A DNA stretch of 64,000 bases, from assembly GCA_965262115.1 (NCBI GenBank), contig OZ253496.1, forward strand, positions 2,080,001 to 2,144,000, written 5' to 3'. The notes beneath the pieces were generated by a model. The model saw only the letters and a program-made list of their open reading frames with translations. It was not told the origin of the DNA and did no database searches. The position numbers and the translations under genes were made by a program. Below, piece by piece: positions 9,435 to 62,355 of this stretch (the stretch's first letter is position 1; each line of letters opens with the position of its first letter). Source of the stretch: Nitrospinales bacterium. Its GTDB lineage: Bacteria > Nitrospinota > Nitrospinia > Nitrospinales > VA-1.

Positions 9435-9723
9435 CCACTCGGCGTGGGGCCAACGAGCAAACATTCTATAGCTACCCACACTTTCAGAGCGCATTTAACC
9501 GCTATTACCAGTTACCTGCGGAGGTTCTCCGCCCACTCGGCGTGGGGCCAACGAGCAAACATTCTATAGCTACCCACACTTTCAGAGCGCATTTAACCGC
9601 TATTGCCAGTTACCTGCGGAGGTTCTCCGCCCACTCGGCGTGGGGCCAGCGTGCAATCGCTTTTTCTGGCAGGCAAACGTGTTCTAGGCTCAACAAGCTA
9701 TTGTTAATTGCCTCCACGGCAAG
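9435..9723 (+). repeat. Tandem family A units: two 98-bp copies (one mismatch) plus a third divergent unit
   Basis: CCACTCGGCGTGGGGCCA at 9435, 9533, 9631; units 1 and 2 differ only at 9507/9605. Confidence 0.9.
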
Positions 9724-33826: not shown

Positions 33827-34264
33827 ATGTTACAACCCGGAACCGATGCGCCAGATTTTTCTGTGAAAGATCATAACGGAAACACCGTAAACCTGAAGGA
33901 TTGCAGAGGGAAAAAAGTGGTGCTTTGGTTTTACCCCAAGGCCGATACCCCCGGTTGCACTATGGAGGGCCAGGGGTTCCGCGATGATTACAAAAGTTTC
34001 GAGAAAAAAAATGTCCAGATTTTCGGGGTCAGCCTGGACAATGAAGCGGATAACAAAGCCTTTGCAGAAAAATTCTCTTTCCCCTATCCCCTGCTTTGCG
34101 ATGTGAATCGGGAAATCGCACTGGGCTATCAGGCGGTCAAAAGCGCCGAAGAGCAATACGCGGCCCGCATCACCTATGTGATCGGGGAAGATGGAAAGAT
34201 TCTCGAAAGCATCGAAAGTGTGGACACCAAGACCCACTCGCAAGGTTTATGCTCCCGGCTTTGA
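33827..34264 (+). CDS. bcp: Peroxiredoxin Q/BCP
   Basis: FYPKADTPGCT motif. Confidence 0.9.
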   Translation: MLQPGTDAPDFSVKDHNGNTVNLKDCRGKKVVLWFYPKADTPGCTMEGQGFRDDYKSFEKKNVQIFGVSLDNEADNKAFAEKFSFPYPLLCDVNREIALGYQAVKSAEEQYAARITYVIGEDGKILESIESVDTKTHSQGLCSRL

Positions 34265-34277
34265 TCCTTTAGCGGGG

Positions 34278-34406
34278 GAGACCTTTGCATAACCCAATAT
34301 TCTTCGTTGCAATAGCTCCTCAGAATGACAAAATAGCCTTTTATTGTCATGCTGAGCTTGTCGAAGCATCTCGCTTTTCTGCTTTATAGACTTACGCAAA
34401 GGTCTC
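34278..34406. mobile_element. MITE family B copy (129 bp)
   Basis: TIRs GAGACCTTTGCATAA / TTACGCAAAGGTCTC; exact 9-bp TSD TTAGCGGGG (34269..34277, 34407..34415). Confidence 0.9.
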
Positions 34407-34499
34407 TTAGCGGGGGGGGGGGCATTAGCAACGACTCTTCAAGCCGAGGTGATCGCTTGTTTGCCAGCAAAAGCTATTACCCCTTGTATGTTGTTCATA

Positions 34500-34710
34500 A
34501 GGGGAATTTGTAGTAGTTGTACCTGTGAGCCCTGTGGGAAGCCGGTTTTGTGTTTTCCACAAGCTCCCAGGATTTGATTCAGGGCACAATAGATCGTTTA
34601 CCCCTTGGGCTTTTAAGCCCGTCCCGAAGCGCAGATCGTTGTGTCCTATTTTGATTAACCCGAACAGTTGCCTGGGCCACTGAGCCCGCATCGGCAAGGC
34701 TGGGAGACCA
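34500..34710 (+). ncRNA. IS110 bridge RNA (predicted)
   Basis: 5' hairpin 34522..34571; target loop with TTACCCCT (34598..34605) and GTCCCGAAG (34621..34629); donor loop with ACAGTTGC (34664..34671) and GCAAG (34694..34698); RNA ends approximate. Confidence 0.85.
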
Positions 34711-34714
34711 AATT

Positions 34715-35665
34715 ATGAATCAGAAACCCCATTTTATTGGCATCGATATTTCTAAACTCCATCTGGATGTTGCTGACAGCATGACTCAAGAAACCTGGCA
34801 AACCGCTAACAATGAAGAAGGGATTGCTGGTTTGGTCGAGAGTTTATCCGCCTTAAATCCTCCATTGATCGTTTTGGAAGCCACAGGCGGCTTAGAGATC
34901 CCGTTGGCTTCGGCCCTGGTTGCGGGTCGACTGCCAGTAGCCGTGGTCAACCCGCGACAAGTTCGTGATTTTGCCAAAGCCACCGGGAAACTGGCAAAAA
35001 CCGATGTCATTGATTCTCTTGTGCTGGCCCATTTTGCCAAGGCCGTACGTCCTGAGGTCAGGAAAATCAAAGACGAAGAATCTCTTGAACTCTCAGCTCT
35101 GGTGACACGCCGTCGCCAGTTGATCGAGATGCTGACCAAAGAAAAAACCCGTCTAAAACAAGCTCCAAAATGGATATGTAAAGACATTAAGGAGCATATC
35201 GAATCTCTTAAAAAACGCTTGCGAAAAATCGATGGCGACCTTTCCAGAACCATCAAAAACAGTTCTGCCTGGCGTGAGCACGACCAGATTATACAAAGTG
35301 TTCCCGGTGCCGGTCCCGTTCTGGCTGTCAACCTCTTGGCCGGGGTTCCGGAACTTGGAGTTCTTAATCAGAAGCAAATCGCCGCCCTCATCGGTCTCGC
35401 TCCCCTCAATCGGGACAGCGGAAAGTTCCGGGGCCGCCGGTGTATCTGGGGCGGCCGCGCCAATGTGCGTGCCGCTTTATACATGGCCGCCGTCACTGCC
35501 ATGCAGCATAATCCCGTGATTCGTACCTTTTACACACGCCTCATCGAAAAGGGCAAACCCTTTAAAGTTGCCATTACCGCATGCATGAGAAAGTTATTAA
35601 CGATCATCAATACCATGATCAAAACAAAAACACTCTGGAATGAAAATCTCATTACCAGCACTTGA
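34715..35665 (+). CDS. IS110-family recombinase/transposase
   Basis: DEDD residues in IGID, LEATG, KTD..D; SG motif in RDSGK; KVAITACMRKL. Confidence 0.95.
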   Translation: MNQKPHFIGIDISKLHLDVADSMTQETWQTANNEEGIAGLVESLSALNPPLIVLEATGGLEIPLASALVAGRLPVAVVNPRQVRDFAKATGKLAKTDVIDSLVLAHFAKAVRPEVRKIKDEESLELSALVTRRRQLIEMLTKEKTRLKQAPKWICKDIKEHIESLKKRLRKIDGDLSRTIKNSSAWREHDQIIQSVPGAGPVLAVNLLAGVPELGVLNQKQIAALIGLAPLNRDSGKFRGRRCIWGGRANVRAALYMAAVTAMQHNPVIRTFYTRLIEKGKPFKVAITACMRKLLTIINTMIKTKTLWNENLITST

Positions 35666-35682
35666 CATTTAACACAGTTGCT

Positions 35683-35794
35683 TCGGGGCACGAGATACCC
35701 GTGCCGGGCATGAAGGCAAAGGTAAAATATCACATACCCGTGCCGGGCATGAATTTTAAGGAAGAGGACATCACAGCTATGAAAGAATATCACG
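35683..35794 (+). repeat. Family C cluster: remainder of the IS110-interrupted copy with two nested copies
   Basis: Outer copy 34478..34484 + 35683..35695 + 35776..35794 = 39 nt; inner copies 35696..35734 (39 nt) and 35735..35775 (41 nt). Confidence 0.8.
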
Positions 35795-35885
35795 GCCACC
35801 GGCGGCTCGTCGGCCACGCCTGGTGGGTTGACGGAGCCGGGTTAGGGCGTTATGATTCTTTTTCATTAAATTTCTGGAGCAAAGA

Positions 35886-37007
35886 ATGGGGTACAAAGAA
35901 TCTTATATGCCTGAACCCTTGGATGAGGGCCAAAAGAAGAAGAAAAAAGAAATTTTAAATACCCGGATTGCTCCGGTCGACTTTGAAAATATTAAGGATG
36001 TGGGTGATCTGGTGGAGTCGTTTCAATCGGCTTCCATTCAGGCCCGAAACCTCGGGCAATGCGCCAAAATATTTGGGGAAATGCTTCAAGATGAGGAAAA
36101 ACCCACTATTATCCTGGGGCTGGCGGGTCCCCTGATTGCGGCGGGACTGAGAAAAGTCCTGCGTGATATGGTGCATTACAATATGGTGGATGTGATCGTT
36201 TCCACCGGGGCGATTTTATATCAGGATTATTACAACGCCCTCGGCGGGGGTCATTATTATGGCAGCCCAAATGCTGATGATACCAAGCTCAGGGAACTCT
36301 TCATCAACCGGATTTATGACACCTATGTTGATGATGAATTATTTGTCGAGGACGACACCCTGGTGGGAAGGTTCGCCGATACTTTAGAACCCGGAAACTA
36401 TTCCAGCAGGGACTTCATCTCCAGACTATCAGAAACCATCGATGATGATGAATCCATTCTGGTCACGGCCCGGAAAAACAATATTCCGATTTTTTGCCCG
36501 GCCATCAACGACTCCAGCTTAGGGATAGGGTTGACAGAGCATTATCACTCGGCTCGCAAAGAGGGGCGCACTCCTATCACCATCGATTCCATTCGCGACA
36601 ATTACGAACTCACTCAGATCGTGGTGAACTCGACACGCACGGCGGCTTTTTATGTTGCGGGCGGAGTGCCTAAAAACTATGTCAACGATTCGGTGGTCAT
36701 GGCCTATATTTTTGGTAAGGATACCGGTGGTCACAAATATGCCCTGCAAGTGACCACGGACTCGCCGCATTGGGGCGGGTTGAGCGGCAGCACGTTAGCC
36801 GAGGCGCAGTCGTGGGGGAAAGTCAATAAAGAGGCGACACATAGCATGGCGTTTGTCGAGCCCAGCGTTTCGCTTCCGTTGATTTATGGTTATGCGTTTC
36901 AAAAAGGTCTTTATAAAGGGCGCCCACGAATGGACTTCAAATGGGAGGGTGATACCCTGAAAAAAATGGCCCGCCGCCAGCGTGACGCTGGACTCAATGA
37001 GCAATAA
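35886..37007 (+). CDS. Deoxyhypusine synthase-like protein (DHS family)
   Basis: STGA, RIYD, PAINDSSLG, GGVPKN, GGLSGSTLAEAQSWGK. Confidence 0.9.
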   Translation: MGYKESYMPEPLDEGQKKKKKEILNTRIAPVDFENIKDVGDLVESFQSASIQARNLGQCAKIFGEMLQDEEKPTIILGLAGPLIAAGLRKVLRDMVHYNMVDVIVSTGAILYQDYYNALGGGHYYGSPNADDTKLRELFINRIYDTYVDDELFVEDDTLVGRFADTLEPGNYSSRDFISRLSETIDDDESILVTARKNNIPIFCPAINDSSLGIGLTEHYHSARKEGRTPITIDSIRDNYELTQIVVNSTRTAAFYVAGGVPKNYVNDSVVMAYIFGKDTGGHKYALQVTTDSPHWGGLSGSTLAEAQSWGKVNKEATHSMAFVEPSVSLPLIYGYAFQKGLYKGRPRMDFKWEGDTLKKMARRQRDAGLNEQ

Positions 37008-45749: not shown

Positions 45750-46373
45750 ATGGTGCAAAACGTTTCAATCCCAATTTCCGCTCTCCAACACTATTCATTC
45801 TGCCCGAGGCAGTGTGCGTATATCCATATTGAACAGGTGTGGAGCGACAACTATCTCACGGCCAAGGGTAGCCAGCTGCACGAGCGGGTGCATAGCAGCG
45901 AGACGGAAACACGCGGCAACATCCGCTCCGAGCGCGGGGTACAGGTTTGCTCTGAAAAATTGGGCGTACATGGTCAGCTTGATCTGCTGGAAGTGGATCG
46001 CGGTTCCGGTGCGGTCATGCCTGTTGAATACAAAAGAGGCAAACCCAAGACTGCGGATTGCGACCGTGTTCAGCTTTGCGCCCAGGTCTTGTGTCTGGAG
46101 GAAATGACCGGGCACCGGATAGACAAGGCGGAAATCTGGTATTGGCAGGTTCGGCGGCGCGAATGGATCAATGTTGACGACGCGCTAAGAAAATCAACGC
46201 TGGCGGTTATCAACGCGACAAAAAAATTATTCAGTACAGGGGAATTACCGAAAGCAGTGTATTCCCCTTCGTGCAAAGCCTGCTCGTTTGTTGACCGATG
46301 TTCCCCGCAACAAAAGGATCATAGCGATTCTTATGTAAAAAAAATGTTTCTCAATGAAGAAATTACTCAATAA
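45750..46373 (+). CDS. cas4: Cas4
   Basis: ISALQHY.FCPRQ, PVEYKRGK, QLCAQ, CKACSF..C. Confidence 0.95.
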   Translation: MVQNVSIPISALQHYSFCPRQCAYIHIEQVWSDNYLTAKGSQLHERVHSSETETRGNIRSERGVQVCSEKLGVHGQLDLLEVDRGSGAVMPVEYKRGKPKTADCDRVQLCAQVLCLEEMTGHRIDKAEIWYWQVRRREWINVDDALRKSTLAVINATKKLFSTGELPKAVYSPSCKACSFVDRCSPQQKDHSDSYVKKMFLNEEITQ

Positions 46374-47373
46374 TCTGTACATCACTACTGATGGTAGTTA
46401 TGTACACAAAGAACGTGAAACTATCGTTATAGAGCAGGAAAAGAAAAAAGTATTTCAACTGCCGTTTCACGCGATTGGCAACCTGTTTTGCTTTGGCAGG
46501 GTCATGGTATCGCCTGCGTTAATGGCAGCATGCGGTGAAAAGGGGATTGGACTTTCGTTCTTTACCGGATTTGGAAAGTTTCAAGGGCGGGTGCAGGGAC
46601 CGCAAAGCGGCAATGTGTTATTGCGCCGTACGCAATACCGGTTGGCCGACCATGGACCCGGAATATTGTCACGGCTTTTTGTAGCCGCAAAACTGACAAA
46701 CAGCAGACAAATACTGATGAAACATCAACGCAACCATGGCAACGATGATTCGGTAAAGCAAGTTGTAACCATGCTGGCCGGGTGCATAAGACGACTGGAG
46801 CACCAGACCGATGTCGATCAAATAAGAGGCATAGAAGGAGAGGCCGCCGCCCACTATTTTTCCGTATTCAACCAGTTGGTGCTGGAAGGCCAGCGGAAGA
46901 ACTTTTCATTTAGAGGCAGAACCAAAAGGCCGCCTCTTGACAAAATCAACGCGTTGCTTTCCTTCAGCTACACCTTGTTGACCCATGAAATCGCCTCTGC
47001 GCTACAAGGGGTGGGGTTAGACCCATACGTTGGCTTTTTGCATACGGATCGCCCTGGACGGGTAAGTCTGGCGCTGGACATGCTGGAAGAATTTAGAGCA
47101 TGGTGGTGTGATCGGTTCGTGTTGACTTTAATCAACCGGAATCAAATTAAATCATCAGATTTTATAAACGAAGCCAGCGGTGCTATTCGCATGAAGGACG
47201 ATGCCAGGAAAATGTTTCTTACACAATGGCAAGAACGAAAGCAGGAGAATCTGCAGCATCCCTATATCGGAGAGAAAATTCAGATTGGTCTGTTGCCACA
47301 TGTGCAAGCCCTGTTGTTGGCAAGATTTTTACGCGATGACTTGGAATGCTATCCGCCGTTTTTGGTTCGTTGA
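46354..47373 (+). CDS. cas1: Type I-C Cas1
   Basis: SGNVLLRR.QY, RGIEG.AA..YF, NALLSF.Y, GFLH.DRPGR.SLALD..EEFR. Confidence 0.96.
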   Translation: MKKLLNNLYITTDGSYVHKERETIVIEQEKKKVFQLPFHAIGNLFCFGRVMVSPALMAACGEKGIGLSFFTGFGKFQGRVQGPQSGNVLLRRTQYRLADHGPGILSRLFVAAKLTNSRQILMKHQRNHGNDDSVKQVVTMLAGCIRRLEHQTDVDQIRGIEGEAAAHYFSVFNQLVLEGQRKNFSFRGRTKRPPLDKINALLSFSYTLLTHEIASALQGVGLDPYVGFLHTDRPGRVSLALDMLEEFRAWWCDRFVLTLINRNQIKSSDFINEASGAIRMKDDARKMFLTQWQERKQENLQHPYIGEKIQIGLLPHVQALLLARFLRDDLECYPPFLVR

Positions 47374-47382
47374 AGAGCCGCC

Positions 47383-47676
47383 ATGTTAGTGTTGATAACC
47401 TATGATGTGAGTGTGGCTGGAGCCAAGGGGAGCAGGCGCTTACGGCATATCAGCAAATTGTGCCAGGATTACGGTATTCGTGCTCAGTATTCGGTTTTCG
47501 AGTGTGAAATAACTCCAGCCCAATGGGTGGATTTAAAATCCGCATTGCTGGGGGCCTATGATGCTGATCTCGACAGTTTACGGTTTTATTATCTTGGATC
47601 TAACTGGAAGCGAAAGGTAGAGCACCATGGAACAAAACAGACGCCGGACGTGCTTCGAGACCCACTGGTTTTATGA
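47383..47676 (+). CDS. cas2: Cas2
   Basis: LITYDV, RAQYSVFEC, DSLRFY.LG. Confidence 0.96.
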   Translation: MLVLITYDVSVAGAKGSRRLRHISKLCQDYGIRAQYSVFECEITPAQWVDLKSALLGAYDADLDSLRFYYLGSNWKRKVEHHGTKQTPDVLRDPLVL

Positions 47677-47852
47677 CCGCTAACGGTCAGTTATCATGAA
47701 ATCAACGCAAGGTTAGCGGGGCCGCAAACACTTGATTTTTAAGAATATAGCTTCAGATAGAGTGTTATGCGTTGATCTTTTGCAGTTTGGAATTATCGGT
47801 TAGCGTTATATTGCCTGTTCCTTCAACGATAACAATCGGGTAGGATAGGGCT
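47677..47852 (+). promoter_or_regulatory. CRISPR leader
   Basis: Non-coding between cas2 and repeat 1; CCGCTAAC/GTTAGCGG inverted motif, third GGTTAGCG at 47798, IHF-consensus match at 47725..47737. Confidence 0.75.
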
Positions 47853-47950
47853 GTCGCCCCCCGTGCGGGGGCGTGGATTGAAACTTAAATTTACAGGCTG
47901 GACCATGGAATCATCCGAGTCGCCCCCCGTGCGGGGGCGTGGATTGAAGT
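47853..47950 (+). CRISPR. Minimal type I-C array: 2 repeats, 1 spacer
   Basis: 32-bp GTCGCCCCCCGTGCGGGGGCGTGGATTGAAAC at 47853, degenerate terminal copy (..GAAGT) at 47919; 34-bp spacer 47885..47918. Confidence 0.92.
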
Positions 47951-60399: not shown

Positions 60400-60476
60400 C
60401 CGCGTCCACTCGGCGTGGGGCTAGTGTAATAAGCCCGATGCTTGTCTCAATAATTCCTCTCCCCTTGAGGGAGAGG

Positions 60477-60856
60477 ATGAAGGTGAGGGGGAATAAAAAA
60501 TCTCTTCCAAATTTTCTGCAAGAAAACTCCGAAACAACTCCACCGATGCAGAAATAAAGCTATGGTCTGCACTTAGGTCTGCACTTAAAAACCGCCAACT
60601 GGCTGATTTCAAGTTTCGCCGTCAAGCACCCGTAGGAAAATACATTGTAGATTTCTTGTGCCATGAAAAATGTTTGATCGTTGAAGTCGATGGTGGCCAG
60701 CATATGGAAGCATCGATAGCCGATGATCAGCGTACCGCTTGGTTGCAGTCACAAGGATATCAAGTTATTCGATTTTGGAATGATCAAGTCTTGAAAGAAA
60801 CTGATGCGGTTCTTGAAGAGATACTGAGGTGCCTGAGCCAGGAAAGCCAGCGGTGA
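60477..60856 (+). pseudogene. DUF559/Vsr-like endonuclease, frameshifted near the start
   Basis: ARKLR.NST.AE..LW, FRRQ.P.GKYIVDF, EVDGGQH, VIRFWN; ATG 60477 is out of frame across the A-run at 60495; 12-bp in-frame duplication GGTCTGCACTTA. Confidence 0.8.
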
Positions 60857-61092
60857 AAATATTTGAATCCCCCTCATCCCAGCCTTCTCCCTCTAGGGGA
60901 GAAGGAGAAGAATCCACAAAGGAAATTGATTCAAAATTAATAATTCCTCTCTCCTTGAGGGAGAGGATAAAGGTGAGGGGGGCTAAGAAATATTCCTTAT
61001 TTTCCAATGGGTTGTATCGAAATGTGGGCGACATAAAAGTCCCGGCTGACAACTCTTCTTTTGTAAGAATTGAATCGCTCGGAGGGAGCATT

Positions 61093-62166: not shown

Positions 62167-62355
62167 GGGATTTCAGTTAAATCACCCTCACCCCAGCCCT
62201 CTCCCCTCAAGGGCGAGGGGGAACCCCACATATAGTAAAATCCCTTCTCCCCTGGAGGGAGAAGGTTAGGATGAGGGGGGTATATAAAGACTTTGCTCAC
62301 TGGCCCCACGCCAAGTGGACTGTGGTTAAGTTTGGGACTTTGGTATATAATTCCC

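Follow-up and report, generated by a model that had tools for sequence, protein, structure and literature searches.

The locus considered here lies in a 64,000-nucleotide stretch of a Nitrospinales bacterium genome (contig OZ253496.1, positions 2,080,001-2,144,000; hereafter the window), where four kinds of repeated DNA are piled up in one intergenic gap: a hairpin module (family A), a transposable element of the miniature inverted-repeat type (MITE; family B), a unit of about 40 nt (family C) and an insertion sequence (IS) of the IS110 family. The locus raises the question of why these elements lie in one another. A first-pass annotation of the window read them as a four-level nest and as a safe-harbour system in which each element uses the previous one as landing pad. 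The nest as such is not surprising, because IS elements are known to enter hairpins resembling repetitive extragenic palindromes (REP). We consider it moderately probable, for the explanation as a whole, that the pile-up results from three separate targeting rules pointing at hairpin repeats and not from a four-step ladder, that C moves as single-stranded DNA (ssDNA) whose short flanks anneal to a look-alike site, and that selection then removes insertions in genes. IS110, B and C follow three different site rules, and the part that is new here is the covariation at the C junction, the tendency of C lineages to stay in sites of one kind and the altered flanks of filled sites.

Data and definitions

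The source genome (G000) is a single 2.68-Mb contig, written C1 in coordinates of the form G000:C1:position, and was compared with the related genomes G007, G013, G016 and G019; the comparison with G013 covered 2.4 of its 2.86 Mb. G000, G013 and G019 branch in a near trichotomy (support 54). Gene calls came from a crude open reading frame (ORF) model made for the analysis, under which about 21% of G000 is non-coding; A takes 6.5-6.9%, B 1.7% and C 2.3% of this non-coding DNA. Elements were peeled off G000 innermost first, giving 437 in total (24 IS110, 338 C and 75 B). The notation X<Y means that Y is inserted in X, so that A<B<C is a C in a B in an A.

Structure of the nest

The nest lies in the gap that separates bcp, a peroxiredoxin gene, from a gene of the deoxyhypusine-synthase family; a promoter-like site follows closely downstream. 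Its parts are as follows, the three copies of C being numbered C1 to C3.

34269..34277, no strand: left 9-bp copy of the B target duplication (0 mismatches to 34407-34415)
34278..34406, plus strand: MITE B, 129 nt, with 15-bp terminal inverted repeats common to an IS5-family element
34407..34415, no strand: right copy of the B target duplication, matching the left copy and lying within an A terminal hairpin
34420..34477, minus strand: left part of the family A linker (profile match, 37.4 bits)
34478..34484, plus strand: piece 1 of C1 (positions 1-7), its last bases being the CT core of the IS110 target (by peeling)
34485..35682, plus strand: IS621-like element of the IS110 family, the second CT core (35681-35682) included
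34575..34714, plus strand: predicted bridge RNA (fold with two stem-internal-loop units; guide-target match and covariation)
34597-34605 (left) and 34621-34629 (right), plus strand: predicted guides of the target-binding loop, placed by eye after the description in PMC11208160
near 34664-34672 and 34689-34698, plus strand: predicted guides of the donor-binding loop, placed by eye after the same description
34715..35665, plus strand: IS110 recombinase gene, 316 aa (PF01548 and PF02371; NF033542 at 225 bits, cut-off 140; 8wt6_A at 4e-30)
35683..35695, plus strand: piece 2 of C1 (positions 8-20; by peeling)
35696..35734, plus strand: C2, 39 nt, placed after C1 position 20 (by peeling; identical in G013)
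35735..35775, plus strand: C3, 41 nt, in tandem behind C2 (by peeling)
35776..35794, plus strand: piece 3 of C1 (positions 21-39; by peeling)
35795..35827, minus strand: remaining A module with terminal hairpins (peeled sequence; the profile match reaches 35806)

Automatic peeling of the locus bore out that one A unit has B at one end and a C copy at the other, and that C1 holds the IS110, after its base 7, and two more C copies, after its base 20; the three C1 pieces sum to 39 nt. Since B and C1 lie side by side, the depth of the locus is three, and the four-level chain A<B<C<IS110 was found for none of the 437 peeled elements.

IS110 and its guide RNA

G000 has 23 full copies of this IS110, 21 at 98-100% identity and two at 87%, all with the CT core on both sides and the right flank of the C hairpin, and lacking long inverted repeats or a target duplication. 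The recombinase combines a DEDD RuvC-like domain with a C-terminal serine domain and aligns over 304 residues to a solved IS110-family transposase, IS621 being the second match. Two stems interrupted by internal loops form in the fold of the left end, as in published bridge RNAs (PMC11208160); the candidate RNA had no Rfam family above its cut-off. Of the target guides the left one matches bases 1-7 of C, and the right one shows complementarity to the core and the next bases but one. In the two 87%-identical copies one right-guide base is changed together with the matching target base (TGC loop for TTC), which counts as one event because the two copies are close kin. Homologues in G013, G016 and G019 carry a third guide, which fits a TCC loop, and what varies in the guide is the base opposite the only loop position left free by C. 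These matches make it likely that IS110 is steered to the C hairpin by its predicted bridge RNA.

The distribution of copies agrees with the earlier observation that IS110 lies in C: 21 of 24 sit in intact C, against a 2.3% share of non-coding DNA, and the remaining three share C's right flank. When G000 is freed of IS copies, 43 of 46 occurrences of the 12-nt target are C, and IS110 occupies 17 of the 48 C copies with the target loop; none was found in G000 in C with a TAC, TCC, GTGCC or GTTCC hairpin. Only two of the 66 B-hosted C copies carry the target loop, and IS110 is therefore missing from them, which is why there is no fourth level. The IS110 circle joint was absent from contigs of four sequencing runs, although contigs drop rare forms.

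IS110 in a hairpin repeat is known biology. IS110/IS621 elements are described as targeting REP palindromes by bridge RNA (PMC11208160, PMC11208158), ISPpu9, ISPpu10 and ISPa11 are described as IS110 elements in REP palindromes (PMC1525189), and such targeting of REP-like hairpins is also described in bioRxiv 10.64898/2026.03.19.712850. The present element shares with IS621 and its kin the recombinase with DEDD and serine domains, the long left end with two guide loops, the CT core, and the single fixed position in a multicopy intergenic hairpin. It differs in that its target is the mobile 40-nt C and not a REP linked to a REP-associated tyrosine transposase (RAYT), and in that three guide variants in the genus match three of C's four loop variants.

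Two arrangements of this IS were seen elsewhere. Just past the window (G000:C1:2144620-2145970) an IS110 copy stands behind 162 nt of its own left end, and the join falls in the target loop of the bridge RNA. IS3 with a C near one end occurs in 13 copies (for example G000:C1:1810395-1812469), six of them with IS110 inside, and several IS110 copies share a frameshift.

Ends, sites and flanks of C

C is 39-41 nt long, and its profile has 444 matches in G000 against one in the reversed genome. Exact empty sites back its boundary at 22 of 128 sites, with a 3-nt duplication at one of the 128. The C pattern is present in 26 of 51 other genomes of the family and in none of 40 outside it; the 80 matches listed, out of at least 80, all belong to Nitrospinota. 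There are 329 pattern matches in G013 and 79 in G007. The pattern was also seen in two viral contigs (L301, L302).

One end of C forms a hairpin that covaries at its closing pair, and its loop is kept as G-N-A on the strand that folds best (junction fold -5.2 versus -3.9 kcal/mol on the other strand). Loops of the G-N-A type make stable DNA hairpins. At 192 of 209 sites the last base of C is the complement of its base 16. In 36 disjoint pairs of close copies that differ at base 16, the last base switches in 27, against 5 of 94 control pairs. These two bases extend the stem only when the end of C is joined to its start, as in a circle or a tandem.

C lineages are faithful to their sites. For 65 of 140 sites outside B, the nearest relative of the C copy lies in a like site (null mean 5.9, maximum 13), and with hosts B, C and IS3 excluded this holds for 30 of 96 (null 2.8, maximum 10). 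C uses fixed positions within each host, and one C variant sits in the loops of many different host C. One B-hosted class dominated the pairwise profile of flank identity, and this profile is given no weight as evidence.

Filled sites also differ from empty ones in their flanks. C loops that hold another C have CT at +3/+4, in place of GG, at 15 of 21 sites, compared with none of 509 empty loops (G000 and the 2.4 Mb of G013). Among A hairpins six of seven filled ones have C at +3, whereas the empty ones are TGCTG in no case and TGGGG in 98. At eight orthologous pairs of filled and empty sites, 13 of 48 positions differ at +1 to +6, 2 of 48 at -6 to -1 and 12 of 352 beyond (p 4e-7 for +1 to +6 against beyond); this strict set left out two sites as tandem, one of which is a true case and is in a looser set of 17 sites. 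One site can be followed stepwise, from empty (G007) through a host C (G013) to a host with an inner C (G000).

As a very short, precise insertion without duplication, C resembles the small dispersed repeats (SDR) of cyanobacteria, and we regard the SDRs of Nostoc as probably the closest known kind by this analogy; SDR5 of Nostoc is described as inserting precisely (PMC4390886). C differs in being confined here to one Nitrospinota family and in having the junction pair. C is also longer, at 39-41 nt against 21-27 nt for SDRs. Elhai (2008) reportedly described the Nostoc SDRs as very short mobile units of defined structure, which lie within other repeats and are not known to have an enzyme. With REP sequences C shares its size, its hairpin and a stem mismatch, but its copies go in one at a time with precise boundaries, and a fixed CT is lacking at the sites; neither a GTAG-type tag at the stem foot nor CT cleavage appears in its consensus and flank matrices. 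It is also unlike the miniatures of IS200/IS605, since it has only a weak flank consensus instead of a fixed target tetranucleotide, one hairpin and not one per end, and no bias relative to replication (159 of 338 copies on the leading strand). We found no paper on the C element or on such a nest in Nitrospina in a search that was thin on subscription journals.

How C may move

In the explanation that we prefer, C would be excised or copied by way of a circle or tandem junction at which its two ends lengthen the hairpin stem. A single-stranded copy would carry along a few donor bases, anneal to a look-alike repeat and be fixed by replication, and the carried flank would pair with the new site and overwrite +1 to +6. 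Transfer of ssDNA with flanks would give the fixed host positions, the tie between variant and site, and the flank changes. As a working guess, the step may be host annealing at the replication fork after a nick by a hairpin-specific nuclease. A similar process is described as SPDIR (bioRxiv 10.1101/2024.07.02.601687), in which ssDNA pairs with microhomologies at the fork, the traces being small indels accompanied by clustered substitutions. SPDIR occurs very rarely and carries no fixed cargo, while here one cargo with exact ends recurs hundreds of times. An extension of this explanation, in which C is a geneless micro-homing element, an ssDNA hairpin closed across its own junction that uses the bases of its last site as guide to the next and overwrites the flank there, with IS110 chasing it by change of the one guide base opposite its free loop base, is offered only tentatively.

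Several results weigh against ssDNA transfer with flanks or against the matching of IS110 guides to C. No intermediate of C was seen and no mobiliser was found in G000, where the Y1 transposase is absent and the reverse transcriptase consists of two stop-containing fragments. In the looser set of 17 orthologous sites the differences are 24 of 102 on the right, 14 of 102 on the left (six of them from one misaligned site) and 53 of 748 beyond, right against left not being significant (p 0.10), and seven of the 17 have no change at +1 to +6. The T at +4 is not derivable from C's own sequence, and +1 is often host-like. Site classes are singletons in 64 of 89 cases, which requires in addition some way of reaching new kinds of site. 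The flank filter lessens the part that co-amplification of older composites of host and C can have played, and leaves it some probability. C also lacks an orientation bias relative to replication. Outgroups do not polarise gain versus loss of C at five sites, G019 being filled at two of the five. For the guides, the sole readable G013 target is TTC despite the TCC-type guide there, which calls for a wobble or a mismatch.

The strongest alternative, which we consider rather unlikely, is that a dedicated enzyme of HUH or integron-integrase type moves a bare 39-41-nt circle and that both the altered flanks and the tie between variant and site class arise later, by ordinary gene conversion among repeats and by amplification of hosts. 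The exact ends without duplication, the junction pair, the conserved G-N-A loop with better folding on one strand and the many singleton classes would all fit such a circle, and TnpA-REP is described as cutting near bound hairpins and proposed to excise single-strand circles (PMC3333891). However, Y1 genes are absent from G000 and also from G013 and G007 with their 329 and 79 pattern matches, and C has no strand bias. Unbiased conversion from the 509 empty loops should moreover erase the 21 filled ones and not spread them. Y1 genes are present in seven of 23 genus genomes; at their eight loci the flanking repeats are others, neither A nor C, and one locus has both about 600 nt upstream. The Y1 genes of L055-L061 code for transposases of 325 aa, and the short repeats on their flanks, of GGGGTCAAG type, have no relation to A or C.

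Other searches in G000 gave no PDDEXK_3 gene and four unclassified tyrosine-recombinase matches, and none of seven GIY-YIG matches and seven DUF559-like loci is bounded by C or A as an element would be. Two ideas on C were tried and rejected. The variable middle of C as a guide pairing with the target gave a best z of 3.4 among several hundred registers, with equally large negative values, and templating of the flank change by an arm of the C hairpin fails, by inspection, to give the T at +4.

MITE B

B has terminal inverted repeats and a target duplication and lacks a transposase. Its basic length of 128-129 nt rises in steps of 39-40 nt as C copies enter, and 55 of the 81 pairs of terminal repeats are bordered by a 9-bp duplication with at most one mismatch. 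G000 has broken transposase genes that share the end of B, and a broken copy matches DDE_Tnp_1, the best NCBIfam match being an IS5 model below its cut-off. The intact parent, 1173 bp long, has the ends of B and encodes a transposase of 313 aa; it is present in seven copies in G013, with a perfect 9-bp duplication, in hairpins, at three of five copies examined. B sites are self-complementary, C-rich on the left and G-rich on the right, and 51% of 45 sites fold at -4 kcal/mol or below, against 10.6% of 1500 random intergenic sites. B mostly enters hairpins other than A, and its parent too lands in non-A hairpins; from these site properties B prefers hairpins in general, the ends of A being one kind. 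B, whose ends are those of an IS5-family element, is likely moved by that transposase into GC-stemmed palindromes.

An IS5 MITE entering palindromes is a known kind of element, and B has the short terminal inverted repeats common to an autonomous IS5-type element and the target duplication of such MITEs. Its regional preference for hairpin repeats recalls ISNm1106 of Neisseria, which is described as preferring extragenic spaces with REPs (PMC1525189). B differs from ISNm1106 and IS5 MITEs in its 9-bp duplication and in a body made of two inverted copies (GTCAT..GAAG) of a repeat that elsewhere flanks a GIY-YIG gene. The ends of B may resemble those of IS1106.

A small GIY-YIG gene near G000:C1:2573200 (112-116 aa, subfamily unassigned by NCBIfam) has the inner repeat of B on both sides. 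A second such gene, at G000:C1:2378957, is also flanked by it and is broken, with a C inside its frame. The arrangement recalls the Ssn group, described as GIY-YIG single-strand nucleases (PMC11893778), whose SRM motif as published there is not enriched in the inner repeats of B (five matches versus seven in the reversed control). At G000:C1:1718461 a B lies inside a host ORF resembling a broken membrane protein gene, which we take to be of DUF898 type. Another family of hairpins, D, often hosts B and C; in the window (60449-60991 and 62180-62290) and at other loci it flanks an ORF, presumably DUF559-like.

Hairpin module A

A consists of a 62-71-nt linker between 13-20-nt hairpins of a few related types. 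G000 has about 330-400 copies, the profile giving 358-417 matches against 2-5 in the reversed genome, with hairpins on the flanks; modules are sometimes in tandem, and 101 of 291 end within 15 nt of a stop codon, a count made without a null model. As multicopy extragenic pairs of inverted palindromes with a conserved linker, often at stop codons, they resemble REP sequences, bacterial interspersed mosaic elements (BIME) and REPINs, which are described together with RAYT/TnpA-REP (PMC3333891, PMC3116915); unlike them they have no RAYT (Y1 HUH) gene in G000 flanked by A or C. A may be the oldest layer, a module of REPIN/BIME kind that serves only as substrate. In the window two tandem 98-nt modules that are 99% alike lie at 9435-9630, and longer arrays of 96-nt units lie near G000:C1:2466700-2467080.

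Nesting across the genome

The nesting matrix proposed in the first-pass annotation was computed against the intergenic expectation, and enrichment ranged from 3.5-fold (B in A) to about 40-fold (IS110 in C); nesting no commoner than the intergenic share, which would have spoken against the idea, was not seen. Top-level C sites lie in A in 86 of 194 cases against a share of 6.9% (binomial p 2e-47, or 5e-25 were non-coding DNA half as large). B was said to lie in A in four of five cases, which stands for complete copies in the window, where the figure may be inflated as the A profile was seeded from the window itself; genome-wide it is 17 of 71 sites (18 or 19 with wider masks, hence 24-27% over three masks; p 5e-6, or 0.014 at half the non-coding space). 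C was said to lie in A, B or C; in the window it sits in these and in other intergenic DNA, and genome-wide the 338 copies are placed in A (88), B (66), C (37 nested and 12 in tandem), IS3 (13), other non-coding DNA (119) and called genes (3). The sparing of housekeeping genes holds at the seven coding-called sites, and B does lie in one host ORF (292 codons) and in two transposase genes, which we take to be IS30-like.

A layered ladder, with A as the target of B, B as that of C and C as that of IS110, has in its favour that all three links are enriched and that A<B<C occurs 17 times, A<C<IS110 five times and A<C<C<IS110 once. Relative dating by copy divergence, which had also been suggested, gave a median identity to the nearest copy of 0.998 (IS110), 0.98 (B), 0.90 (C) and 0.73 (A); this is a rough order of activity and not a clock, in which A is the most and IS110 the least diverged, as a ladder would have it. 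The same order makes B younger than C, and the full chain is missing, most B lie outside A, three of 75 B copies lie inside C, and C enters A directly. Of the landing-pad idea, what survives is that the guides of IS110 match C; the links form a web, with C directly in A, B, C and IS3 and B in C. We therefore find a true ladder very improbable.

Little probability is also left for copying of C through RNA and nick-primed reverse transcription, in which downstream bases of the RNA would overwrite the primer end. The one-sided changes at +1 to +6 in the strict ortholog set and the exact ends fit it; the reverse transcriptase fragments of G000 and a G-N-A loop conserved on the strand that folds best as DNA do not. 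Absence of any targeting, with survivors merely lying in the small non-coding fraction, much of it repeats, agrees with the few insertions in genes and is the least probable of all, because repeats make up about 15% of the space and hold 119 of 196 top-level C sites, C keeps fixed positions per host, and IS110 uses one position of one loop variant; the enrichments would be compatible with it only if insertions were tolerated in less than a tenth of the estimated intergenic space. The preferred explanation is thus the one with three targeting rules and ssDNA transfer of C.

Flanking genes and history of the locus

The features on both sides of the nest are the following.

33827..34264, plus strand: bcp/AhpC-TSA peroxiredoxin gene (ORF; Pfam PF00578, 4e-37)
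35828..35856, plus strand: sigma-70-like promoter of the next gene, 10/12 by consensus match only, untouched by the nest
35886..37007, plus strand: deoxyhypusine-synthase-family gene (PF01916, 3e-86; NCBIfam match below cut-offs)

The bcp stop codon directly adjoins the hairpin entered by B. bcp and the next gene are neighbours in 21 of 22 loci of relatives, which have similar promoter boxes at the same place, and IS110 is at this locus in none of the 22. G007 has A alone here, without B or C. G013 has A, C1, an identical C2 and a C3 variant, without IS110; its B-type element is in the opposite orientation with the duplication shifted by 3 nt, so that B entered this hairpin twice. The order given by G007 and G013 is A, then C1 with C2 and C3, then IS110, with B arriving independently. 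A contig of sequencing run X6 joins 34274 to 35846 with 214 other letters; this run is of another strain and holds IS110 elsewhere, and the contig is consistent with late arrival of IS110. A contig of run X5 (and of X4) with a C inside B at the locus matches other B copies of G000, and these contigs were taken as graph chimeras. Between bcp and the next promoter nearly every genome of the genus (L002-L023) has an A-type module of its own (103-457 nt), and the gap is a hot spot of module turnover.

The promoter and both flanking genes are intact at the nest, and insertions in called genes are few. This much of the safe-harbour idea agrees with the data, and selection alone can account for the few insertions. 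Safety is relative, as nests also recombine. Positions 34478-36062 are duplicated at G000:C1:1417996-1419571 (98.5%), beside an IS3, and the duplicated stretch covers the IS110, C2 and C3 as well as the promoter and 177 nt at the start of the deoxyhypusine-synthase-family gene. In several IS110 and C copies the left flank comes from one host and the right flank from another; such C copies were seen at G000:C1:1145130, 1427517 and 1834454, as after recombination between C copies. Elsewhere in the window (46354-47950) cas1 and an ORF resembling cas2 are accompanied by no more than two CRISPR-like repeats of 30 nt, spaced 66 nt apart.

Significance

How DNA units of fewer than 50 bases move without an enzyme of their own is an open question. 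C is present in many copies, varies from one close genome to the next and leaves two marks open to testing, the junction pair and the accompanying flank changes. In this genome bridge-RNA guides also form a natural series that corresponds to the loop variants of a mobile target, which is useful for studying IS110 specificity. The nests are recombination substrates as well, and one of them has duplicated a promoter and a gene start. If the tentative view of C as a micro-homing element were true, C lineages would specialise on host repeats, and a guide-versus-target chase would be going on between two mobile elements.

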